Below are positions 30,223 through 55,991 of a DNA stretch of 64,000 nucleotides, piece by piece. The position numbers and the translations under genes were made by a program. How positions within the stretch are numbered: position 1 is the stretch's first letter; the number at the start of each line of letters is the position of its first letter. Source of the stretch: an uncultured Gammaproteobacteria bacterium (GTDB taxonomy: Bacteria > Patescibacteriota > Patescibacteriia > Patescibacteriales > GWC2-42-12); NCBI GenBank assembly GCA_964467155.1, contig CAYXNZ010000002.1:14339-78338 (forward strand), given 5' to 3'. The notes under the pieces are model-generated. The model made no database searches. It saw nothing but the letters and a program-made list of their open reading frames with translations, and was not told where the DNA came from.

Positions 30223-30771
30223 ATGAGTAAAATTACCGTAGAACAGATCGGCGAGCTGGTTGAGCAAAGCAAGGGTGAGAATCCTCGGGTAACCAGGGAG
30301 ATCCTGCAGGCTTTCCTGCGAAACCCCAACGCCTTTCTGCGGGCAAGCGTTTATTCAGCTACCGTTGATTACGGGAAAAGCGTTGAGGAAATGGTTGTCG
30401 CCGGCAACTACGACTGGAAAAACAAAGACATCAATTCCAAAAACTTTCCCGTATCAGGTGAGGGAACGGTCAACGTCAATTTCGAGTTGATCCACCTCAA
30501 CAAGGGAGTTAGCTCCGAGGATGCTTTGACCCACCTCGAAGAAAACGGGATGAGGCCACCGACAATTGAGGAATTACTGGTGTTCGGCTCCAGTTACCCC
30601 GAAATCCAGCGGGAATTTCCGGTTATTTGCCTCGGCTCGTCTTGGGTTAATCCCGGCGGCGACCGTTACGTGCCTTACCTCAACGGGAATGGTTCGGAGC
30701 GTGGCCTCGACCTCGGCTGGTTCGACGATGACTGGAATGGGTACTGTCGTTTTCTGGCCGTTCGCAAGTAG
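30223..30771 (+). CDS. DGR target (variable) protein; the C-terminal ~46 aa are encoded by the variable repeat
   Basis: AAAGGAGCGG SD. GC-rich coding sequence. The 3' 139 bp is near-identical to the TR, with mismatches only at TR adenines. C-terminus ...SSWVNPGGDRYVPYLNGNGSERGLDLGWFDDDWNGYCRFLAVRK resembles CLec-fold DGR variable regions. Confidence 0.85.
   Translation: MSKITVEQIGELVEQSKGENPRVTREILQAFLRNPNAFLRASVYSATVDYGKSVEEMVVAGNYDWKNKDINSKNFPVSGEGTVNVNFELIHLNKGVSSEDALTHLEENGMRPPTIEELLVFGSSYPEIQREFPVICLGSSWVNPGGDRYVPYLNGNGSERGLDLGWFDDDWNGYCRFLAVRK
30631..30769 (+). repeat. DGR variable repeat (VR)
   Basis: 139-bp alignment with the TR (31142-31280). 14 mismatches, all at TR adenines (A to G 11, A to T 2, A to C 1). 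Identity ends exactly at ...gttcgcaagt. Confidence 0.9.
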
Positions 30772-30786
30772 GATCTTGTCGCCTTG

Positions 30787-30818
30787 TGTCCTTGGAACTG
30801 GAACTTTGTCCCTTGGAC
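30787..30818 (+). promoter_or_regulatory. Hairpin 18 nt downstream of the VR (gtgtcc...ggacac); candidate DGR homing-enhancing stem-loop
   Basis: Inverted repeat gtgtcc / ggacac. Its position just 3' of the VR matches the cruciform element described for the Bordetella phage DGR. Confidence 0.4.
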
Positions 30819-31141
30819 ACTTGGCAACTTGTAACCTCACAACAAAAACCCCGCACGTTTTATGCTTAGAAAAGCAGACGACGAGCGGGGTTATTTATTT
30901 TGTGATATAATAAATTTGGAAAGTAAACGAATCAGCTCACGGCTACGGTTGCGGGCGGTTGAAATCTGGATACTGCAACAAGTGAGATTATCCAAGGTTA
31001 CGGCTTTGGGTAGAGTGCCGTTGCAATATTCCATAAAATAAAAATACTTGGTATAAGATATCAGTGGGATAATAGCCCCGAATAAAATACAGCCCCGAGA
31101 GTATTCAAAGGGCGGTGGCAAAGACGATATCTTATTATTTT

Positions 31142-31280
31142 AACGGCTCGTCTTGGGTTAATCCCGACGGCAACCGTAACGTGCCTTACCTCAACAGGAA
31201 TGGTTCGAAGCGTAACCTCAACCTCAACTGGTTCGACAATGACTGGAATGAGTACTGTCGTTTTCTGGCCGTTCGCAAGT
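31142..31280 (+). repeat. DGR template repeat (TR)
   Basis: Invariant, A-rich copy of the VR located between the target gene and the RT. Followed by the ctccc-atac-ggggag hairpin plus a T-run. Confidence 0.9.
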
Positions 31281-31284
31281 CTTT

Positions 31285-31605
31285 TCATTCTCTCCCATAC
31301 GGGGGAGTTTCTTTTTTATAAAGCTTCATCCAACCGCCTATCATTCTGCCGATCTCGGCAAGTGGGGCGGATATGGCTGTCAATTTGTTTGTATCAATCG
31401 CTTTTATTTCCCAAAGAAGCTTCAAGAAGAATTTGAGCATATCAAATCTTGCGTTAAGTTCTTTTATCGTGTCGGCCTTTTTGTCTTTCGGCTGATAGCT
31501 TGCCCGCAGAGCAATTGCCAGACAATCGGTAAATAGATTATCTATCTTTTTACCCAAAGTGAAGCGGGTAATTTTCGGCAGATGAATTAAAAAAGAATGC
31601 CACAT
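31285..31605 (-). CDS. avd: DGR accessory variability determinant (Avd-like four-helix-bundle protein), inverted relative to target/TR/RT
   Basis: LNARFDMLKFFLKLLWEIKAI and LAEIGRMIGGWMK align with bAvd (LAMLRFWLRFLAGI, IAEVGRILGSWI). The frame stays open upstream through a C10 tract with no canonical start, so the N-terminus is uncertain. Confidence 0.65.
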   Translation of the reverse strand: MWHSFLIHLPKITRFTLGKKIDNLFTDCLAIALRASYQPKDKKADTIKELNARFDMLKFFLKLLWEIKAIDTNKLTAISAPLAEIGRMIGGWMKLYKKETPPYGRE

Positions 31606-31655
31606 CTGATATGCCTCACTTAATTTGGCGATAATCGGAATATCGCAATTGCTGA

Positions 31656-31665
31656 GGGGGGGGGG
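31656..31665. repeat. G10/C10 homopolymeric tract between avd (minus) and the RT start
   Basis: gggggggggg read directly at the divergent avd/RT junction. It lies inside open frames on both strands. Confidence 0.9.
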
Positions 31666-31687
31666 TAGACTTATAAGCTTTTTGTGT

Positions 31688-32692
31688 ATGAAGATTAAAT
31701 TGATTCATAGTTATAATGATATTATTTGCGTTAATAATTTGTTTTCGGCTTGGAATGAATTTATTGTCGGTAAAAAATCTAAAAAAGATGTGCAGGAATA
31801 TTCCCGCAATCTTCTTGATAACATTATATCACTTCACGAAGATTTGGCTAATAAATCTTATCGGCACGGTGGGTATCACAGTTTTTACATCAATGACCCA
31901 AAACGCAGGCACATTCATAAAGCGAGCGTGCAAGACAGATTGCTTCATCACGCCGTTTACCGCCTGCTGTATCCGTTTTTTGAGAAAACGTTTATCCACG
32001 ATTCATATTCTTGCCGTTTGGAAAAAGGCGTGTATAAAGCGATTGAACGATTTGATGCCTATGCTGGCAAGACAAGCAAAAACGATACCAAGACGGCATG
32101 GATATTAAAGTGCGACATTAAAAAATTTTTCAATAGTATTGTCCATAAAACCTTACTGGAAATTTTAAACAAACACATTCCTGACAAAGATATAATATGG
32201 CTTTTGAATAACGTCATAGACAGTTATCATAATACAAACAAGAGAGGCGTCGGCTTGCCACTCGGTAATTTGACTTCCCAGCTGTTTGCTAATGTATATA
32301 TGAATGTTTTTGATCAGTGGGTTAAGCACAGATTAAAGATTAAGCGGTATATAAGATACGCAGATGATTTTGTATTTTTCAGCAGAGATAAGCGACAGCT
32401 CCATTCTTTGATTGAGCCAGTTGGAGAATTTTTGTTTCAAACATTAGGTTTAACACTTCATCCCAAAAAGATTATCAAAAAGTCATTGTCGTCCGGCATG
32501 GATTTTTTGGGTTGGGTGCATTTGACTCACTATAAAAAATTACGGAACAAGACAAAAGAGCGGATGTTTAGAAAAATAGCCGACGATCCTAGAGATGAAG
32601 TTTTCCAGTCATATCTGGGGCTTTTAAGCCACGGCAATACTTACAAAATTGAAAAAGAATTGCGTAACCTTTATTGGCTTTTAGGAGATTAA
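31688..32692 (+). CDS. DGR reverse transcriptase
   Basis: RT motifs in order. The DGR-specific motif-4 variant LPLGNLTSQLFAN (LGxxxSQ) and YADDFVFF are present. Start at ATG 31688 (MKIKLIHSYNDIICVNNLF...). The track start at 31625 would read through the G10 tract. Confidence 0.85.
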   Translation: MKIKLIHSYNDIICVNNLFSAWNEFIVGKKSKKDVQEYSRNLLDNIISLHEDLANKSYRHGGYHSFYINDPKRRHIHKASVQDRLLHHAVYRLLYPFFEKTFIHDSYSCRLEKGVYKAIERFDAYAGKTSKNDTKTAWILKCDIKKFFNSIVHKTLLEILNKHIPDKDIIWLLNNVIDSYHNTNKRGVGLPLGNLTSQLFANVYMNVFDQWVKHRLKIKRYIRYADDFVFFSRDKRQLHSLIEPVGEFLFQTLGLTLHPKKIIKKSLSSGMDFLGWVHLTHYKKLRNKTKERMFRKIADDPRDEVFQSYLGLLSHGNTYKIEKELRNLYWLLGD

Positions 32693-46369: not shown

Positions 46370-46560
46370 TGCGTTGCCACGCAGGCCTACTTTTTGTAAC
46401 TCCGCCAGTATGGGCGGACAGGCGCCAAGTAACCAAACCTGCCTGCCGGTAGGCAGGAAGTTTTGGGGTGCTTTATTCCCCGCCAGTCGGCGGGGTAAAC
46501 GCTACTAAGCTCAGGCCTGTCCCGCAGTATTGCGGGAACGCACCCCAAACCCCAACTTAC
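46370..46560. other. GC-rich multi-hairpin element in an AT-rich intergenic region; unclassified ncRNA or repeat cluster
   Basis: Nested palindromes: ccgccagtatgggcgg; cctgcc-tgccggta-ggcagg; ccccgccagtcggcgggg; cccgcagtattgcggg. The last two are enclosed by a long-range pair ttggggtgc...gcaccccaa. Shares the CGCCAG core with repeats at 29377, 59891 and 61005. Confidence 0.4.
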
Positions 46561-46709
46561 CATAAAAATTATAGGTAGTTCTAAAATTATTTTACCTAAT
46601 TTAGGTGTCCTTTTGTATTAAATTAAGCTTGGGAGTAGAATGTAGCATGTTACTATTGACAAAATATTGAAAGAATTAGCGGTTTTTTGGTGCGAAAGAC
46701 CGCTTTTGC

Positions 46710-46738
46710 TTGACAAAATATTAAAAGTATGCTATAGT
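46710..46738 (+). promoter_or_regulatory. Consensus promoter TTGACA-17-TATAGT upstream of the secreted-protein gene at 46798
   Basis: ttgaca aaatattaaaagtatgc tatagt. A second TTGACAAAATATTGAAAG copy lies at 46656 without a good -10. Confidence 0.6.
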
Positions 46739-46797
46739 TTTATATTGATCTTTTAATAATAAAAATAGATAGATAAAAACTTTAAGGAGGTTTTACC

Positions 46798-47082
46798 ATG
46801 AAGAAAGTTTTATTTTTAGCAGTTATTGTTTTGACATTAGTGGTCGTCAACCCGGTTTTTGCAAACGAGGGCGTTGACTTTGAGGACTTGCCGGAGAATA
46901 TCACTGTTTCAGCAGTATATTTTCTGGATGGAGACATTGTTTTTGTGCAGAAAGACGTTGGTACCGTCCAGTCGTGTTCTGCACCAACAAAATACAGAAT
47001 GACGGAATGCGGTAATACTATGATATTATCGCAATTACCCCAAAATGGTGGCAAAGTAGTCAGAATACATTTCAAAAGATAA
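46798..47082 (+). CDS. Small secreted protein (94 aa) with signal peptide
   Basis: TAAGGAGG SD. N-terminal MKKVLFLAVIVLTLVVVNPVFA signal peptide (AxA-like cleavage site). Confidence 0.6.
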   Translation: MKKVLFLAVIVLTLVVVNPVFANEGVDFEDLPENITVSAVYFLDGDIVFVQKDVGTVQSCSAPTKYRMTECGNTMILSQLPQNGGKVVRIHFKR

Positions 47083-48278: not shown

Positions 48279-48345
48279 TCTAGCCCCCTCTCTAGCCCTC
48301 CAATCCGGCGGGCAGGCCTCCTCTGTTCTCCCGAGCACTCGGGAT

Positions 48346-48460
48346 CACGGGAGAGGGAATTTACCCCCTCCCTAGCCCTCCCCCGTTCGTTCCTCACGGG
48401 AGAGGGAATTAACCCCCTCCCTAGCCCTCCCCCGTTCGTTCCTCACGGGAGAGGGAATTA
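48346..48460. repeat. 49-bp direct tandem repeat, 2.3 copies
   Basis: cacgggagagggaatt[t/a]accccctccctagccctcccccgttcgttcct repeated at 48346-48394 and 48395-48443, plus a 17-nt partial copy. Units abut with no unique spacers. Confidence 0.9.
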
Positions 48461-48479
48461 ATATAAAGAAGATAATTAA

Positions 48480-48824
48480 ATGAGTAAAAAGGTAAAAATA
48501 CAGTTGGCTCGTGAATTTAGGAAAAGTCCCACAAAATCAGAAAAAATTATGTGGGATGAATTAAGAAGAAATAATTTTTTAAAGTTAAATTTTAGAAGAC
48601 AGCATTTGATTGAAGGTTTTGTAGTTGATTTTTATTGCCACAAATTAAAATTAATTATAGAGATAGACGGTAATATACATGAATATCAACAAGACGAAGA
48701 CGAAGAAAGACAAAAAATAATAGAGCAAAAAGGAAATGTATTTTATAGGATAAAGAGTCAAGACGTAGAAAACAATATAGAAAATATTTTAAGCAAATTG
48801 ATTGATTTTATTAATTTTATATAA
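48480..48824 (+). CDS. DUF559 domain protein (very-short-patch-repair endonuclease-like fold)
   Basis: REFRKSPTKSEKIMWDELRRNNF...FRRQHLIEGFVVDFYCHKLKLIIEIDGNIH matches the DUF559 pattern (REFRKNPT..E..LW..LR....FRRQ..I..YIVDFYC....L.IE.DG..H). Confidence 0.7.
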   Translation: MSKKVKIQLAREFRKSPTKSEKIMWDELRRNNFLKLNFRRQHLIEGFVVDFYCHKLKLIIEIDGNIHEYQQDEDEERQKIIEQKGNVFYRIKSQDVENNIENILSKLIDFINFI

Positions 48825-48931: not shown

Positions 48932-49402
48932 ATGAAAAAAATCTTAATTATTGTTGGTAGTATTTTGGGTGCTATTTTGGTTGTTGGGATAATTTTTTTA
49001 ATTCAGACGAGAGTAATGATTAACAGGGGTCAACTAATAAAATGGGAGGGGGAGATATATACACAAGCAGAGTTTAGAGAAAAATTTCCGCCAGAAGGTA
49101 CGGAAGTGCCAGCAAAAAACACACCAGAAGATGTTTATGAGACTTTCAGACAGGCGTTATTAAATAGCGATATTGAAACTGCTTTATTGCAAATCAGAGA
49201 AGAAAAGAGAAACGAATATCAAATTGCTTTTGAGAATGTGCAGAAATTAGGTGAATGGGTTAAAATTTTGCCCATAGAAATAATAGAAGAAAGAGTAGAT
49301 GGCAATTTTGCTTATTACGATATTGATTACAGCACGGAATATAAAAATTCGATTACTTTTATTAAAAACCAAGAAGGTTATTGGCAAATAGATATAATTT
49401 AA
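48932..49402 (+). CDS. Hypothetical membrane-anchored protein (156 aa)
   Basis: N-terminal TM/signal anchor (ILIIVGSILGAILVVGIIFLI). No motifs recognised. Confidence 0.5.
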   Translation: MKKILIIVGSILGAILVVGIIFLIQTRVMINRGQLIKWEGEIYTQAEFREKFPPEGTEVPAKNTPEDVYETFRQALLNSDIETALLQIREEKRNEYQIAFENVQKLGEWVKILPIEIIEERVDGNFAYYDIDYSTEYKNSITFIKNQEGYWQIDII

Positions 49403-49412
49403 TTTTAAAAAT

Positions 49413-52400
49413 ATGTTTACAAGAAGGAGGCTTGTTTTTTTATTGTGTTTTTCTTTTTTATTTTTTGCGGTTTGTGTTTTGTCTTATGACAATTTGATTA
49501 CTCATCCGAAGCTAACAGAATCAGCAATTAATATTTACGAGCAGGAAGCTGGTAAATATTTAAATTATCAACAAACAAATTGGATTATTAAAGGTTCAAT
49601 TGATGAAGACAATGATCCGCGGTATTTAAACCATTTTTATAACCCACAAACTGGGCGAGGGCTAAACGATGGTTGGTTTCATGGTCAATCAGCTAAAAAT
49701 TGGGCATTTTCTCAAGATAGTGCTACTGGCGATTATTCAGTTGGCGCTATTTTTAATAATTATAGAAACGGTGATTTAATGCGTGCTTATCAGGGTATTG
49801 GCCATATTTTACATTTAATTCAGGATATGAGCGTGCCGGCACATGTTAGAAATGATGCTCATCCAAGCGGCGACCCGTTTGAAGAATGGGCAGAACATTA
49901 TGGGACAATAAACGCTGACAAAATACAAAAAATAAATATCAATAGTATAGAAAATGTTTTTGATGATTTAGCTTTTTTTACTAGTAATAATTTTTTTAGT
50001 AAAGATACAATTGTAATTGAAGAATTGGATAAATATAAAATAGATGAGGAACTAATTGACAACAGAAAAAGGTTTTATTTGATTAATAAAATAGATAAAC
50101 AAGAATATAAATTAGTATATTCAAAAAATCCAGATTCCATAATGCCAGTTTTTCAAATTGATGATGATTTTAAATTAAATCTTGACTATTGGAATATGCT
50201 TTATCCAAAAGCAGTTGGGTATAGCGCGGGCGTGATTGAATATTTTATTAAAGAATTTAAAAAGATAGATCAAGAGAAAAATGAAACAACAATAAGTTTA
50301 TGGCAAAAGATAAAAAATAGCACAAACAATCTTTCTTCAGATTTAGCTTATACGTGGGGCGATACTTTTATTGATAGTAGGATTAGATTAGATAATATTT
50401 TAGCAAGTGCGTTTAGTGGATATACTAAAAGTCAACAAGGATTTGAATTTTTTGCTGAAGCTAATAGAGAAATTTTAACTGATTTAAGTCAAAGGAGTGT
50501 AAATATTGCTCAAAATTTGTCTGGCAAGGTATTATCGGCAGAGGATACCATTTCAAAACAACAGATTCAGACAAAAATAGAAACAGAAGTGATTCAAGAT
50601 TTGAAAAAAAATAATCCAGATGTGGCCAGAGTGATTGATGGCGATACAATTGAATTAACTACTGGTGAAAAAGTTCGTTATATTGGCATTGATACACCAG
50701 AATTAAACAGCGAAGGATCAGATGACGATGAATGTTTAGCTTGGCTAGCCAGATTAAGAAATATGGAGCTTTTAAGCATGGGCGAGTTAAAATTAGTAGA
50801 AGATTCAACTGCCAAGACAGATAAATACGGCAGATTATTGCGTTATGTTTATATAAACAATTTGTTCGTTAATGACGTATTAGTTAAAGAAGGATTAGCT
50901 GAAATATTTTTTTGCCAACCAGGCTGGGAAAATTGTCCAGTAACAACAGATAAAAATAAAGAGAATATAATCAAAGCTTCAAACCAAGAAGCTAAAAATA
51001 ATGCTAGAGGAATTTATTCTGGCGTTTGCGATAAGGAAGATGAGCCTGAAAAAGAAATTATTAAAAAATTTGAAGATAAAATTGAAGAAAAAATAATCTT
51101 GGAAGAAAAATTTATAGAAAATAATACAGCTAGCACGTCAACGTCAACAATGATGCAATTACCTCTTGTTTGCGCGCCAGCTCATAATAATGATTCAGAT
51201 AACACAAATGTTGTTGTTTCAGAGATAGCGAATTTTTCTGTTTTTGATATAACTTCAAGTAGTACTAATATTATTGCCAGTACTACCGTTGGATTAAGTT
51301 ATACAATTAGCAATCAGGAAGCAGTCGAAGGATATTTTTTGTCAGAAGCTTCTACAACACCCGCAATTGACGATGCTAGTTGGGAAACTACTGCGCCAAG
51401 TCAATTTGTTTTATCAAGTAGCGATGGTAAAAAAATAATTTATTTTTGGTTAAAATATAATAGTGATAATATAACAAATTTTGTCAGTTCAACAATTATT
51501 CTAGATACAACAGCGCCGACAATGCCAATGATTACTAGCATAGAACCGTTAAGTGATATTTATTGGGTAAATACTAGTGAAGTTTTGTTAAGCGGAGAAA
51601 AAGAAATTGGAGTTGATGCGATTTTGATAAATGGTGTAGCATATAGTGCGACCAGCAGTGAAGAAACATGGAATGTTAATTATACTTTTGATTTTATTTG
51701 TTCTGACTCAAGCTCCTGGGGTAATTTAGTTGCTTATGATTGTATGACTGAATATTGCAATGGACATAAAGAAGAATGCGATGGTTTGAGTGATGAAGAG
51801 ATGAGAGTATTTTTTTATGAAAGAGAATTGATTTTAAAAGCGAAAAATGAAGCAGGTAATTATTCAGAAGAAGCTGAAAAAGTTTTTAGATTGGATAATT
51901 TTTTGCCAAAAATTTGGGGAGCATTATCAACTAAATCAATTCCCAGTAGTTTTGTGTATTTTTATATGTCAAATTTAGAAGATTTTATGTCGGATTTATT
52001 GTTTTTTAATTCCGGTGTGAGCGGGTATGAGTTTGAATATAAATTTAATGATTCAGAAGATTGGGTTGTTGGAGAAATTGTCGAGGTTAATTATCCTAAC
52101 GCGACTCTTCGGGCAGTATTGTCAGATGAAGGTAATTTTGATTTACGTTTTAGAATGCTTGATTTTGCTGGTAATGTTGGCGAGTGGTACGAAGGTTTGA
52201 CGGCGGAAGTTAATTTTTATCCGGTAATTAGCGAAATTTATATGGATGAAATTAATAGTGGCAGTGAATGGATAGAGCTTTATAATCCATCGGTCAGTGA
52301 TATTGATATCGGTGGCTGGGTAATTGATACCAAAGCAGACGAAGAGGCCGACGTTACTTTGCCAGATGACGCGATAATTCCGGCTTATGGATTTTATTTT

Positions 52401-52787
52401 ATCGGCGATCAAGTATCAGGAGAATGGAATCCCGATAATGTTGACTGGATAGTTCCAGACTACACCGAGACTATGACATTGACAAATGACGATGGCTGGG
52501 TTAGGTTGAGAAAAAGTACTGGTGGTGAAATTGTTGATACAGTTGGTTGGCAGAAAACAAAAGTTAAAGCAGAAGTTTATGAAGGCAGAGAAGTTAATAC
52601 TTTTGGTTGTAAAGAAGGTTATAGTATTGAAAGGTTAAATATGTTACAAGTACTTTCTGATAACACAGATCTTTATCAAAATAAAGGGAATAATTTTGAT
52701 AGGAATTATAATAGCGGGGATTTTGTTGTTAGAGAAACACCCAATCCACAAAATAGTTCGTCAGCAGTTGAAGGGGCGGGGGATTAA
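49413..52787 (+). CDS. Large secreted multidomain nuclease: N-terminal zinc-dependent phospholipase C / S1-P1 nuclease-like domain, central staphylococcal-nuclease (SNase) domain, C-terminal lamin-tail domain
   Basis: Signal/TM at the N-terminus. HFYNPQTGRGL and GIGHILHLIQDMSVPAHVRND (compare B. cereus PLC HFYDPDNGKTY, LGLSLHYLGDVNQPMH). SNase motifs VIDGDTIELTTGEKVRYIGIDTPE...KYGRLLRYVYI...LVKEGLAE. LTD motif VISEIYMDEINSGSEWIELYNPS...IGGWVI. Confidence 0.7.
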   Translation: MFTRRRLVFLLCFSFLFFAVCVLSYDNLITHPKLTESAINIYEQEAGKYLNYQQTNWIIKGSIDEDNDPRYLNHFYNPQTGRGLNDGWFHGQSAKNWAFSQDSATGDYSVGAIFNNYRNGDLMRAYQGIGHILHLIQDMSVPAHVRNDAHPSGDPFEEWAEHYGTINADKIQKININSIENVFDDLAFFTSNNFFSKDTIVIEELDKYKIDEELIDNRKRFYLINKIDKQEYKLVYSKNPDSIMPVFQIDDDFKLNLDYWNMLYPKAVGYSAGVIEYFIKEFKKIDQEKNETTISLWQKIKNSTNNLSSDLAYTWGDTFIDSRIRLDNILASAFSGYTKSQQGFEFFAEANREILTDLSQRSVNIAQNLSGKVLSAEDTISKQQIQTKIETEVIQDLKKNNPDVARVIDGDTIELTTGEKVRYIGIDTPELNSEGSDDDECLAWLARLRNMELLSMGELKLVEDSTAKTDKYGRLLRYVYINNLFVNDVLVKEGLAEIFFCQPGWENCPVTTDKNKENIIKASNQEAKNNARGIYSGVCDKEDEPEKEIIKKFEDKIEEKIILEEKFIENNTASTSTSTMMQLPLVCAPAHNNDSDNTNVVVSEIANFSVFDITSSSTNIIASTTVGLSYTISNQEAVEGYFLSEASTTPAIDDASWETTAPSQFVLSSSDGKKIIYFWLKYNSDNITNFVSSTIILDTTAPTMPMITSIEPLSDIYWVNTSEVLLSGEKEIGVDAILINGVAYSATSSEETWNVNYTFDFICSDSSSWGNLVAYDCMTEYCNGHKEECDGLSDEEMRVFFYERELILKAKNEAGNYSEEAEKVFRLDNFLPKIWGALSTKSIPSSFVYFYMSNLEDFMSDLLFFNSGVSGYEFEYKFNDSEDWVVGEIVEVNYPNATLRAVLSDEGNFDLRFRMLDFAGNVGEWYEGLTAEVNFYPVISEIYMDEINSGSEWIELYNPSVSDIDIGGWVIDTKADEEADVTLPDDAIIPAYGFYFIGDQVSGEWNPDNVDWIVPDYTETMTLTNDDGWVRLRKSTGGEIVDTVGWQKTKVKAEVYEGREVNTFGCKEGYSIERLNMLQVLSDNTDLYQNKGNNFDRNYNSGDFVVRETPNPQNSSSAVEGAGD

Positions 52788-52860
52788 ATTTATATTTGAA
52801 AATAGGTTTATATAATTTTAACGTTCTTTACATTTTTTTCAAAAAAGGAGGAAATGATAC

Positions 52861-53181
52861 GTGGAAGATAAAGATTCAGAGGAAATCACTCCGTTCCTCA
52901 AGCTTTATAATATTGTAGGTGGATTTGCTGTTACGGATGAACAGCGGCAACAAGCTTGGCAACAACTTTTGCTTATAGGGGATATCCATCTATTTTCTAT
53001 TCTTATTGCGGCAAAGTTTTCCTGGATAAAAATATCTGACGAGGACAAGGAGAAGGCATGGCAAGAATTGTTAAAAAGAGGTATTCAAGATGATGACTTA
53101 TATTTGAATTACCTCTCAGTAAATGCGCCAGAGCCATGGTGCAAAAGAGCTAGGGAATTAAAAGATAAATTGCAGGAATAA
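52861..53181 (+). CDS. Hypothetical small protein (106 aa), first of five SD-driven small genes
   Basis: AAAGGAGG SD 7 nt upstream of GTG 52861. No motif recognised. Confidence 0.45.
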   Translation: MEDKDSEEITPFLKLYNIVGGFAVTDEQRQQAWQQLLLIGDIHLFSILIAAKFSWIKISDEDKEKAWQELLKRGIQDDDLYLNYLSVNAPEPWCKRARELKDKLQE

Positions 53182-53207
53182 TGATTTTTTCAAAAAGGAG
53201 GATCGTT

Positions 53208-53471
53208 ATGGCGACAAAGGGATTGATATCAGAATATGTTAGAAGGAAGAAGGCTTTGATAAAAACTTTAGGTAAAATTGCCATAATCGTTACTTCGGAT
53301 AGAAAAGACGCTGAGGCGATAAAAATTTTACATTCATCGCTTCGTGGCGATAGAGACGTTTCTCTTATTGTTCTTGATGCGATAAGTTTGAACAATAAAA
53401 TGTCCGAAGATGACAAAAAATCTTTTCGTGAAATAGCATCTTACCTGGGGTTGCCGATAAAGGATTGGTAG
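53208..53471 (+). CDS. Hypothetical small protein (87 aa)
   Basis: AAAAGGAGG SD, then ATG 53208 (MATKGLISEY...). The track start at 53181 lies upstream of the SD. Confidence 0.45.
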   Translation: MATKGLISEYVRRKKALIKTLGKIAIIVTSDRKDAEAIKILHSSLRGDRDVSLIVLDAISLNNKMSEDDKKSFREIASYLGLPIKDW

Positions 53472-53491
53472 TTTCAAAGAAGCTCTATACT

Positions 53492-53523
53492 CGCCCGACC
53501 GAACATGGCCGGGCGTTTTTTAT
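53492..53523 (+). terminator. Rho-independent terminator
   Basis: cgcccg-accgaacatgg-ccgggcg followed by TTTTTTT. Confidence 0.65.
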
Positions 53524-53631
53524 ATAAAATACGGTTATATTTAACATTTTAAGCATTAGCGATAGATCCCGCGATTAGAGCCAAAAGGCGGGATTAGAGG
53601 AGGGTGTTATTCATATAAAATAAGCTAACCA

Positions 53632-53660
53632 TTGACAAAATATCATAAATAGGTTATGGT
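53632..53660 (+). promoter_or_regulatory. Promoter TTGACA-17-TATGGT sharing the TTGACAAAATAT box seen at 46656 and 46710
   Basis: ttgaca aaatatcataaataggt tatggt, about 75 nt upstream of the 53737 gene. Confidence 0.45.
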
Positions 53661-53736
53661 TATATGAAGTAAAAAATTTTTGTTGTTTTAAAAATAAGCC
53701 ATTCGGCTTAATACAAAATAAGGGGAGGAAAAGACA

Positions 53737-53988
53737 ATGGCAAAAAATCCAAATAGAAAACTTTCACTTTGTGATTTGAAGTATACTGAAGTAGTTAATT
53801 TATTAAAGAAACCACCGTTGTCTTTGAGTCCCAATAAACTTGGTGACGTAGTTATCGAGGCTTGTGTAAGGATCAGACAAGGAAATGATCCTGGCGAAGA
53901 CTTATTTAACGAAGTTGTCATTCTTGCAACTACAGATGACAGTAGCCAGGCCTCGGAATTGTCTAAACAGTTTTTGGAAGATTTGTAG
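53737..53988 (+). CDS. Hypothetical small protein (83 aa)
   Basis: AAGGGGAGG SD. ORF only. Confidence 0.45.
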   Translation: MAKNPNRKLSLCDLKYTEVVNLLKKPPLSLSPNKLGDVVIEACVRIRQGNDPGEDLFNEVVILATTDDSSQASELSKQFLEDL

Positions 53989-54016
53989 TAAAAAAGACAC
54001 AAAGGAGGTGTTTATC

Positions 54017-54298
54017 ATGGTAAAAGCAATACTTATTGATGTGAAAACGGAAGATCTGATTATGTTAATTTTTGATGGAGATAACGCAGACAAAGAGCAT
54101 GATGAAGGAGCGGCGACAGTTGAGCTTGTTGCCCGTTTTCTCCAGGAAAAAACATCCGAGAAAGACAAGGAGGGGATAAAAAAATGTCTTTCGGTGTTAA
54201 CAAAGGCGGACGGGGAAGTAGGGGTTCTTGCCAGAGATGCTTGCAGAACTTTTGGTATTTCTTTCGGTGGTCCTCTACCGCCAATTATGCATCTATAG
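54017..54298 (+). CDS. Small protein (93 aa), paralog A with conserved C-terminus ...GEVGVLARDACRTFGISFGGPLPPIMHL
   Basis: AAAGGAGG SD 7 nt upstream of ATG 54017. The C-terminal 30 aa are nearly identical in pattern to the next gene. Confidence 0.55.
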   Translation: MVKAILIDVKTEDLIMLIFDGDNADKEHDEGAATVELVARFLQEKTSEKDKEGIKKCLSVLTKADGEVGVLARDACRTFGISFGGPLPPIMHL

Positions 54299-54391
54299 AA
54301 GCGTTCCTCAGAAGCGTTCCTCCTCTCGGTTCATTTCAACGAGCTGAGGGGAGGCGCTCTTTTAAAAAATGTCATGAAGGAGGTAATCTCT

Positions 54392-54691
54392 ATGCTAAAA
54401 AAAGCTAAAAATTATTACAAATTGTCAGTTAAAGAGTTAGCTGGCTTACTCCTTAGTCCTTACAGGAGTAATGGTGAGGAATATGATAAAGGAGCGTTAG
54501 TTATTGAACTTGGTCGTCGTATGTTACTTGGTGGTAGATCCAAGATAACAGACGATAACCGAAAGTTGATAAAAAACTGTCTTAAGAAGTTAACACAAAC
54601 AAAAGGCGAGGTAGGAGTCCTTGCCAAAGATTGGTGTAGGGAGCTGAACATACCATTCGGTGGCCCCTTACCGCCGATTATGCATTTATGA
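54392..54691 (+). CDS. Small protein (99 aa), paralog B with conserved C-terminus ...GEVGVLAKDWCRELNIPFGGPLPPIMHL
   Basis: GAAGGAGG SD then ATG 54392. Shares IKKCL/IKNCL...GEVGVLA+D.CR...I.FGGPLPPIMHL with the 54017 gene. Confidence 0.55.
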   Translation: MLKKAKNYYKLSVKELAGLLLSPYRSNGEEYDKGALVIELGRRMLLGGRSKITDDNRKLIKNCLKKLTQTKGEVGVLAKDWCRELNIPFGGPLPPIMHL

Positions 54692-54704
54692 GAGATAGTA
54701 CTGT

Positions 54705-54739
54705 CCCCGATTCATTTTTAATGGATCGGGGGTTTTTTA
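54705..54739. terminator. Bidirectional rho-independent terminator between the small-gene array (+) and the GT4 gene (-)
   Basis: ccccgat-tcatttttaatgg-atcgggg followed by TTTTTTATTTT. A-rich on the other side. Confidence 0.7.
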
Positions 54740-54752
54740 TTTTAAAGTAGAT

Positions 54753-55991
54753 TTAATTTAAATAGAGTTTTTTTGTTTCAGCTATCATTTTTTCCAAACT
54801 GAATTCTTCAGCAACTTTCGTTTTAGCATTAGCGCTGTATTTTTCTTGATCAGTTTTATTATTAATCAATATTTTTATTTTTTCTGCCAAGTCATCGGCG
54901 TTTTGCGATTCTACTAAGAGGCCGTTTTTTTTGTTTTCAATCATTTCTGGGATACCGCCGACGCGAGTAGAGACAATCGGCAGTTCGGCACTCATTGCTT
55001 CCAGAATTGAGTAAGGAAAACCTTCCTTAACCGACGAGCAAACGTAAATATCAAAAGCTGATAAAAGTTCTGAGGCATTTTCTTTTTCTCCAACTAATAA
55101 AACATTTTTTTCTAGATTATTTTTTTGAATTAATGTTTCTAGATTTTTCCTTTCATTACCTTCGCCAATAATAACAGCGACGATAGGTAGTTGATGATCA
55201 GTAACAAGAATTTTTATCGCCCCTATCAAATATTTATAACCTTTCGTTTTATAGAGATGTCCAACTGAACCGATAAGCAAACTATTTGTCATTCTGGAGC
55301 CGAAGGCGATAGAATCTTGAGATTCTATCAGTCGCTCATTCTTCGCTCCTTCCAGAATGACAGGGTGTGTTTCAGATAATAAAATATGTCGAGCTTCATC
55401 TCTGGGTAAAAAGTTTATTACTTCAAGGCCGTTATGGATTGTGATTAATTTTTCGGGAGAGCAAACTTTTTCTTTAAGCGCTGTTTGATAATCAAACTCC
55501 GAGACGCAAATTATTTTATTTTTAAATCTGGCGGTAAATTTTTCTGCGTATTTATAAAAAAGTTTTTTCCAAATTGACATCGGTTCGTTGAAGACCCAGC
55601 CATGAGCAGTGTAGATTAATTTTGAATTTTGAATTTTGAATTTTGAATTATAAGGATTTATTTTTGTTATTAAAAAAGCCAAAGAACCGAGAATTGAAAT
55701 TTTAGAACTATTAAGATGGATAATATCTGGTTTAATTTTTTTGATTAATTTTATTATTTCAGCAAGTGCTAAAATATCTTTTATCGGCGAAATGGCGCGT
55801 TTTAGATGTTTAATTTTATAATATTTTATGCTTTTTTCGTTCAGTTTTTCAATTAATTCAGTCTGATTATTTTCATTGCCAGAAGCAATATATATTTCAA
55901 ATTCACTTTTTAAATTATCAGCCAAATCAAAAATATAGCGCTGAGCGCCACCAAATTCAGATTGAGTTATTAGATATAGTATTTTTTGCAT
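54753..55991 (-). CDS. GT4-family glycosyltransferase (contains an internal 7-bp x4 tandem repeat)
   Basis: C-terminal GT-B motif EGFPYSILEAMSAELPIVSTRVGGIPEMIENKKNGLLV (E-x7-E-like). 412 aa. Confidence 0.8.
   Translation of the reverse strand: MQKILYLITQSEFGGAQRYIFDLADNLKSEFEIYIASGNENNQTELIEKLNEKSIKYYKIKHLKRAISPIKDILALAEIIKLIKKIKPDIIHLNSSKISILGSLAFLITKINPYNSKFKIQNSKLIYTAHGWVFNEPMSIWKKLFYKYAEKFTARFKNKIICVSEFDYQTALKEKVCSPEKLITIHNGLEVINFLPRDEARHILLSETHPVILEGAKNERLIESQDSIAFGSRMTNSLLIGSVGHLYKTKGYKYLIGAIKILVTDHQLPIVAVIIGEGNERKNLETLIQKNNLEKNVLLVGEKENASELLSAFDIYVCSSVKEGFPYSILEAMSAELPIVSTRVGGIPEMIENKKNGLLVESQNADDLAEKIKILINNKTDQEKYSANAKTKVAEEFSLEKMIAETKKLYLN
55616..55650. repeat. Heptanucleotide tandem repeat (tttgaat/ttttgaa) x ~4.4 inside the GT4 coding sequence
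   Basis: aat tttgaat tttgaat tttgaat tttgaat tat read directly. It encodes ...NSKFKIQNSK... on the minus strand. The unit length is not a multiple of 3. Confidence 0.9.

Follow-up and report, generated by a model that had tools for sequence, protein, structure and literature searches.

The subject of this analysis is a 64,000-nucleotide stretch of contig CAYXNZ010000002.1 (GenBank assembly GCA_964467155.1, positions 14,339 to 78,338), hereafter the window, and within it an island of five plus-strand open reading frames (ORFs), g1 to g5, located at 52861-54691 directly 3′ of the gene for a 1124-aa protein with SNase and LTD domains. We suggest, tentatively and with somewhat less than even confidence, that this island is an autonomous module of small cytoplasmic binding proteins, in which one protein family, termed here family A, forms the core and carries a docking tail. 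The island is restricted to a narrow clade of Falkowbacteria-like Patescibacteria, where it occurs in a handful of close relatives, and its five genes represent orphan families, with nothing recognisable in the libraries searched.

The genes of the island are the following:
52861-53181, plus strand: g1, 106 aa, GTG start, acidic (isoelectric point (pI) 4.8), with an internal repeat TDEQRQQAWQQLL / SDEDKEKAWQELL.
53208-53471, plus strand: g2, 87 aa, family B, fast-evolving, with four predicted helices.
53737-53988, plus strand: g3, 83 aa, acidic, family E.
54017-54298, plus strand: g4, 93 aa, a divergent member of family A that is acidic (pI 4.9), with a GGPLPPIMHL tail encoded at 54266-54295.
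54392-54691, plus strand: g5, 99 aa, family A, pI 9.8, net charge +8.6, with four predicted helices and a predicted disordered GGPLPPIMHL tail encoded at 54659-54688.

A preliminary description, made from the sequence alone, had reported five small genes of 83-106 aa behind the nuclease gene. The same ORFs were found here, and identical calls for all five had been made by public gene callers on 10 independent metagenome contigs. These contigs, from 10 samples, were 99.99-100% identical to the window, save for one 99% fragment, and because of this near-identity they carry no information on within-population variation. For g2, an alternative ATG at 53181, overlapping the preceding stop codon as TAATG, would give a protein of 96 aa. 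The spacing between g1 and g2 and between g3 and g4 was 26-28 nt. The strong ribosome-binding sites and slightly elevated GC content noted earlier were also borne out. The Shine-Dalgarno (SD) motif AGGAGG was located 5-10 nt 5′ of g1, g2, g4 and g5, and GGGGAGG was located 5′ of g3. In a crude gene set of the window, 53 of the 76 genes lacked an SD-like motif, and (A)GGAGG was found in only about five genes outside the cluster (Fisher p ~1e-5 to 3e-4 for the enrichment in the cluster relative to the rest of the window). The GC content of the region was 38.2%, compared with 33.2% for the window; all five genes were above the gene mean (z = 0.9-2.2), and their GC at third codon positions was 0.32-0.35 versus a gene mean of 0.245. 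As had been proposed, the last two genes are paralogs with near-identical C-termini: g4 and g5 could be aligned over 71 aa with 52% identity (E = 2e-23) and end in the same 11 residues (FGGPLPPIMHL). No further paralogs of the island genes were found in the rest of the window. In comparisons with orthologs in relatives, all families were under purifying selection, with ratios of nonsynonymous to synonymous substitution (dN/dS) of 0.09-0.54. Thus, the five genes are real and evolve under purifying selection.

Families A to E were defined by phmmer. Family A comprised g4, g5, P0002, P0004 and the 86-aa proteins. Family B, for which six proteins were found, comprised g2 and P0129-P0133, with relatives also in L095, L100, L102 and L103. 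Families C and D were present in relatives only, family E consisted of g3 and one ortholog with 59% identity in L102, and g1 was a singleton. When 1.84 billion representative proteins were searched exhaustively by HMMER with a profile of g4, g5 and P0002, seven matches at E<=1e-3 were obtained, four of which were true members of family A (P0002, g4, P0004 and P0008). Three of these had E<=5e-35, and P0008 was a remote, tail-less protein of 86 aa (E 3.7e-4). The other three matches were repeat proteins and were judged spurious by inspection. The 90% clusters of the five proteins contained one or two nameless members each, with two in the cluster of g1. Scans of g1-g5 and of the small proteins of L014 against Pfam, NCBIfam, PHROGs and PADLOC returned only noise and no Imm, SUKH or other immunity family; in Pfam and NCBIfam, nothing above noise was obtained at E<=1. 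A PDB sequence search with all five proteins gave nothing meaningful, the match to the designed repeat protein 8erw having no passing stretch. These searches confirm the earlier statement that no known family could be recognised. Profile-profile comparison by hhalign did not point to common ancestry of any of the small families (all probabilities <2%), and the helix-cap pattern S/T-D/E-D/E-x-K/R...L common to them is an impression only. An Rfam scan of the slot for RNA elements found nothing. A phage origin was considered and rejected, as there were no matches in viral contigs or phage records.

The GyrB protein encoded in the window was ~80% identical to those of genomes labelled Candidatus Falkowbacteria, Parcubacteria or Patescibacteria group, and the remaining window is an ordinary chromosome with ribosomal genes, tRNA synthetases, RodA, RF, GAPDH and polysaccharide-synthesis genes. 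Scanning a genome collection with the nuclease yielded no relative, and nothing was found when a metagenome collection was scanned with the nuclease C-terminus.

The slot occupied by the island had the same borders in relatives: to its left lies the C-terminal end of the nuclease gene and to its right, in convergent orientation, a gene for a GT4 glycosyltransferase (54753-55991, minus strand, assigned by Pfam; the same border gene was found in L011, L013, L014 and L100). The sets of small genes between these borders differed:
Window: g1, B (g2), E (g3), A (g4), A (g5).
L100 (complete): B, A with tail, A without tail.
L102, L011 and L012: E, B, A with tail.
L014 (complete): C, D, C′, A without tail.
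L095 (contig ends): B, D, a larger unrelated gene.
L103: C, B.

Across the relatives, the slot repertoire included at least six unrelated small families (A-E plus g1). Family A was present in all four slots that could be seen as far as the glycosyltransferase border. Its orthologs had a dN of ~0.17, compared with 0.15 for the flanking nuclease and glycosyltransferase genes, and a dN/dS of ~0.1. For family B (g2), dN was 0.54-0.67, or 3-4 times that of the flanking genes (0.15). The contents of the slot are modular: family A forms the conserved core, usually accompanied by family B, while C, D, E and g1 come and go and the gene order changes between genomes. Orphan genes like these are common in Patescibacteria genomes; what is new here are the orphan families themselves, in a familiar kind of variable small-gene slot.

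Several signals that may direct expression were located in and around the island:
52789-52816, plus strand: promoter-like site P1 (TTTATA-16-TATAAT), ahead of g1-g2.
53492-53523, plus strand: terminator-like hairpin after g2, CGCCCGACC-GAACAT-GGCCGGGCG followed by a T-run, read from the sequence.
53630-53690, plus strand: internal promoter-like site P2, TTGACA-17-TATGGT at 53632-53660 plus a conserved transcript start.
53695-53710, plus strand: small hairpin AAGCC-ATTC-GGCTT, presumably part of the 5′ leader of g3 and conserved in both L103 and L100.
54297-54322, plus strand: perfect 13-nt tandem duplication (AGAAGCGTTCCTC twice), beginning at the g4 stop codon.
54319-54354, plus strand: terminator-like hairpin between g4 and g5.
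54703-54733, plus strand: terminator-like hairpin separating g5 from the convergent glycosyltransferase gene.

P1 overlaps a conserved segment of 22-31 nt (window ~52789-52819) that matched L014, L095 and L103, and a hairpin with a T-run occupies the corresponding position in relatives. The surroundings of P2 (48-98 nt) were ~89-92% identical in L013, L100, L014, L102 and L103 and were partly shared by L095; synonymous sites were near saturation in most comparisons between P2-bearing genomes. This conserved promoter-like site precedes different genes, namely family E in the window and L102, the tailed family A gene in L100, C′ in L014 and another gene in L095. The 13-nt duplication may be the scar of the event that placed g4 beside g5. 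Based on its own promoter-like sites and terminator-like hairpins, the island appears to be expressed from its own signals and not as the tail of the nuclease operon, and the consensus form of its promoter and SD sites suggests high expression. P1 would serve g1-g2 and P2 would serve g3-g4 and possibly g5, each accompanied by the SD sites and hairpin terminators described above. Another strongly signalled small orphan gene was found at window positions 46656-47082. It lies at 46798 and encodes a 94-aa signal-peptide protein without a family match, and it is preceded by two exact TTGACAAAATAT promoter boxes (the same box as in P2) and by an AAGGAGG SD site. Because the TTGACAAAATAT box is repeated 5′ of this second small SD-driven gene, it looks like the strong-promoter form of the organism.

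Small paired genes whose content turns over in an accessory slot also bring to mind toxin-antitoxin-like or orphan-immunity cassettes that stand apart from the nuclease. In such a system, the basic family A protein would be the harmful or effector component, the acidic or fast-evolving proteins encoded upstream (B, E, g4 and g1) would act as neutralisers, and the tail might be a degron. The order of an acidic gene followed by a basic one (g4 to g5 in the window, B to A in L100, and E then B to A in L102) is consistent with this, as are the fast evolution of B as the putative neutraliser and the option of a TAATG stop/start overlap at g1/g2. However, no toxin, antitoxin or defence model was matched in Pfam, NCBIfam or PADLOC, no DNA-binding antitoxin domain was recognised, and terminators and promoters often part the genes, B and A being so split in the window and L100. 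Moreover, no complete slot lacks family A, and its rate of evolution is as low as that of the neighbouring housekeeping genes, which sets it apart from patchy selfish modules. In L014, the basic family A protein stands without an acidic partner. We therefore regard cassettes of this kind as unlikely.

The left neighbours of the island are as follows:
49413-52787, plus strand: nuclease of 1124 aa, secreted or anchored, with SNase at residues 420-535 and LTD at residues 938-1047.
48932-49402, plus strand: 156-aa protein with an N-terminal transmembrane segment, directly 5′ of the nuclease.

In the nuclease, Pfam recognised SNase (E 1.6e-10) and LTD (E 1.5e-13), as well as an N-terminal Zn_dep_PLPC match that was below threshold (0.0035); the NCBIfam thermonuclease match (3e-13) was below the curated cut-off. 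By inspection, the N-terminus carries a hydrophobic signal or anchor. The nuclease belongs to a family with 275 relatives at E<1e-20 across Patescibacteria.

The preliminary description had likened the island to the immunity-gene array of a polymorphic toxin system, in which g1-g5 would neutralise SNase-LTD nuclease that was misfolded or retained in the cytoplasm. It is true that the small genes lie directly 3′ of the nuclease gene and on the same strand in the window, L014, L095 and L100, that their products resemble some nuclease immunity proteins in being small and helical, and that g1, g3 and g4 are acidic. Nevertheless, the results do not support this comparison. The SNase domain is internal and not C-terminal, being followed by ~590 residues that include LTD, and Pfam revealed no pre-toxin or trafficking domains in the nuclease, which is provided with its own N-terminal signal or anchor. 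The first gene 3′ of the nuclease also differs among relatives (g1 in the window, family C in L014, family B in L095 and L100), although the nuclease itself is conserved. Beyond the close relatives, the expected co-occurrence with the nuclease did not emerge either: its 275 relatives contrast with four proteins of family A, and families A-E were not found beside nuclease orthologs of 32-48% identity. The island has its own promoter-like sites, no Pfam immunity family was matched, the four-helix models had no significant match in PDB (best E 0.33-0.43), and a strongly basic core protein is ill-suited to act as a DNA-mimicking inhibitor. Taken together, these results make an immunity function highly improbable, and we infer that the island is independent of the nuclease. 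The locus cautions that small paralogous genes beside a secreted nuclease are not automatically immunity genes.

A better candidate for a nuclease partner (a chaperone or an inhibitor) than the small genes is the 156-aa membrane protein encoded on the 5′ side. This is the neighbour that stays with the nuclease: a gene for a protein of 155-168 aa without a Pfam match, corresponding in size and position, was located directly 5′ of the nuclease in all ortholog contexts examined (L095-L099) and in the window. In addition, a second variable slot was observed 5′ of this pair, between GAPDH and the 156-aa gene (window 48480-48824; L095 3032-3358). It holds a DUF559 endonuclease-like gene in the window and L099 and a GIY-YIG gene in L095.

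To describe the proteins themselves, AlphaFold2 models were built from shallow alignments. The model of g5 consisted of four helices and a low-confidence C-terminal tail (predicted local distance difference test (pLDDT) score 77.7, predicted template modelling (pTM) score 0.70), and that of g2 also consisted of four helices (pLDDT 86). Foldseek searches with both models gave no significant match in PDB or among viral structures; the top matches were armadillo (ARM)/HEAT repeat proteins (E 0.33-0.43, template modelling (TM) score 0.4-0.5), and no HEAT/ARM repeat was recognised by Pfam in the five proteins. Since these matches are non-significant, "ARM/HEAT-like" is a mere description of helix packing. 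As modelled, the fold class of families A and B is thus a four-helix one, with only weak ARM/HEAT likeness. Two other readings were tried and rejected. The first was a ubiquitin-like role for the Gly-Gly motif, since the fold is all-helical and the motif is not conserved; the second was an UpxZ-like regulator of a polysaccharide locus, for which the Foldseek match was weak (E 1.4) and the genes are not at the head of that operon.

The members of family A have a pI of 9.8-10.7 and a net charge of +7 to +12.6, except for g4 (pI 4.9); g1 and g3 are likewise acidic. So basic a protein could be part of the clade-specific housekeeping of the cell. Family A would then be an abundant small nucleic-acid-binding protein, associated with the nucleoid or with ribosomes or RNA, the other genes would be unrelated fillers, and the adjacency to the nuclease would be incidental. 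A pI of ~10 with a net charge of up to +12.6 in 86-99 aa, presence in all complete slots at a dN/dS of ~0.1, and promoter and SD sites of a form expected for high expression are in accordance with this. On the other hand, the paralog g4 is acidic, no likeness to a known nucleic-acid-binding fold or family was found, and a core factor of chromatin or ribosomes would not usually be confined to so few genomes. Such a role would also leave the conserved tail unexplained. We consider it quite improbable.

Most family A proteins carry the tail. PLPPIMHL was identical in four genes (g4, g5, P0002 and P0004), and several positions showed synonymous codon differences; it is therefore the peptide sequence, not the DNA sequence, that is under selection. 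The 86-aa members of family A stop exactly at the Phe preceding the tail, which argues that the tail is an add-on module, and its low confidence in the g5 model predicts it to be disordered. An unrelated family C protein in the L014 slot ends in ...FPWERIMHA. Neither the rest of the window nor the fetched loci (430 kb) contained other tail-bearing ORFs, and a degenerate DNA pattern for PLPPIMHL followed by a stop codon gave three chance matches in a metagenome collection, all outside real genes.

The C-terminus had earlier been proposed to be either a sorting or a partner-binding tag. Sorting is unlikely because no signal peptide was seen on the small proteins by inspection, no transmembrane segment follows the Gly-Gly motif (only eight residues do), and no CTERM-sorting model of NCBIfam was matched. 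The partner-binding alternative is viable and draws some support from the conserved peptide, its predicted disorder and the ERIMHA ending in L014. The position of the Gly-Gly motif raises one further option, namely precursors resembling those of ribosomally synthesised and post-translationally modified peptides (RiPPs), in which an 85-aa leader would be cleaved at Gly-Gly to release a PLPPIMHL core, as in the NHLP/Nif11 type. FGG precedes the eight-residue tail in three of the four tailed genes, the putative precursors are tandem paralogs, and the tail-less members end exactly before Gly-Gly. However, Gly-Gly is replaced by Asp-Arg in P0002, the core is invariant and the leader variable, which is the reverse of the usual pattern, and the core lacks Cys, Ser and Thr. 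The genes within ~10 kb of the island are ribosomal, glycolytic and polysaccharide-synthesis genes, with no maturase, radical-SAM enzyme or C39-peptidase transporter on either side, and no NHLP/Nif11 model of NCBIfam was matched. We give this option hardly any credence.

Based on the above results, we propose the following scheme for the preferred reading, an autonomous module of binding proteins. The island would be a lineage-restricted accessory module of small cytoplasmic proteins in the fixed slot between the nuclease and the glycosyltransferase. Families A and B would be enzyme-free four-helix proteins that act by binding, a mode of action suggested by their models and by the weak ARM/HEAT likeness of these. 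The basic helical domain of family A would suit a polyanionic or acidic partner, and a flexible Gly/Pro linker would join this domain to PLPPIMHL, a putative short motif for docking to a second partner. For this role, a co-encoded helical-repeat protein such as family B would be the most economical candidate, which is speculative.

Several observations weigh against this scheme. The expression level of the island is read from consensus signals alone, and within the clade the island always adjoins the nuclease, so that a clade-specific link to the nuclease is possible. The evidence for pairing family B with the tail comes from four slots that are complete or nearly so, and as their genomes are related, they do not count as independent observations. 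The fold matches were not significant (best E 0.33-0.43), and the models cover families A and B only; the charge of family B, moreover, is not conserved (-6.4 to +4.6). As for the tail, the Gly-Gly motif before it is replaced by Asp-Arg in P0002, FGG being present in three of four tailed genes, and the resemblance of the L014 ending ERIMHA to it spans only 3-4 residues.

A bolder extension can be formulated, although we think it improbable. In it, the locus would represent a new Patescibacteria-specific modular system, in which mini helical-repeat proteins would be docked by a portable tag (PLPPIMHL, with an ERIMHA variant on an unrelated family) to a receptor encoded alongside them, for instance family B. 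These proteins would form an exchangeable effector/neutraliser or regulatory set delivered from a conserved, cassette-accepting "expression site". If the binding-module reading is true, the island offers a tractable case of ultra-small symbiotic bacteria inventing and reshuffling lineage-specific small proteins, and PLPPIMHL is a defined short linear motif with which the partner can be fished out.

Other features of the window were recorded during the analysis. A complete diversity-generating retroelement lies at 30223-32692:
30223-30771: target ORF, GC 52% in a 33% genome, with the variable region at 30633-30769.
31144-31280: template repeat; 12 of the 12 template-variable mismatches are at template adenines.
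31285-31605, minus strand: bAvd-like gene.
31625-32692: reverse transcriptase gene.

A link between this retroelement and the small-gene slot was rejected, as the template repeat and the slot share no common 12-mer. A non-coding, GC-rich stretch at 46370-46560, in which several strong hairpins can form, is located 3′ of a TATAAT-like box and has no Rfam match; it may be an undescribed structured RNA. A sub-threshold tmRNA-like match was found near it (46772-46831, minus strand, E 0.0018). In addition, a 49-nt GC-rich tandem repeat is located at 48345-48461, between GAPDH and the DUF559 gene, in 2.4 copies with a 98% match, and its units are hairpin-forming.

Among known systems, the island recalls the arrays of polymorphic toxins and their immunity proteins (CDI, Rhs and LXG-type systems with orphan immunity genes), in which tandem genes for small helical proteins, including paralogs, likewise follow a large secreted nuclease and vary in content. 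It differs from them in that the nuclease domain is internal and conserved instead of being a swapped C-terminal tip, that trafficking and pre-toxin domains and an Imm match are lacking, that the island has its own promoters, that the first gene 3′ of the nuclease does not track it, and that its families occupy one small clade whereas the nuclease is widespread. The immunity proteins of colicin DNases, Im7 and Im9, are close to the island proteins in length (~85 aa versus ~85-100 aa here), in having four helices and in being encoded next to a nuclease gene. Nevertheless, there is no sequence match to them, and the nuclease here is of the SNase type and Sec-targeted, not an HNH colicin. Im proteins are acidic, whereas the core member of the island is strongly basic. 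Type II toxin-antitoxin systems also consist of small adjacent genes in accessory slots, with acidic/basic pairs and one fast-evolving partner, but here neither a toxin or antitoxin fold (such as RelE/ParE, MazF, PIN, HicA or Doc) nor a DNA-binding domain was seen, the modelled g5 and g2 being plain four-helix proteins, terminators and promoters lie between the genes, and the basic component is stably kept.

With RiPP precursors of the NHLP/Nif11 type, the tailed proteins share a long N-terminal domain, Gly-Gly, a short C-terminal peptide and tandem copies; they differ in their conserved core, in a Gly-Gly that is not invariant, and in having neither maturation or export machinery nearby nor a model match. 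Unlike proteins with C-terminal sorting signals (GlyGly-CTERM, PEP-CTERM and LPXTG), they have no signal peptide and no transmembrane helix after Gly-Gly. Finally, ARM/HEAT repeat proteins were the top fold matches of families A and B, at non-significant values (E 0.33-0.43), but only about two repeat units are present in these families, and Pfam gave no HEAT/ARM match. ARM/HEAT repeats typically bind extended peptides, and for this reason the likeness, weak as it is, fits the idea of a docking tail.

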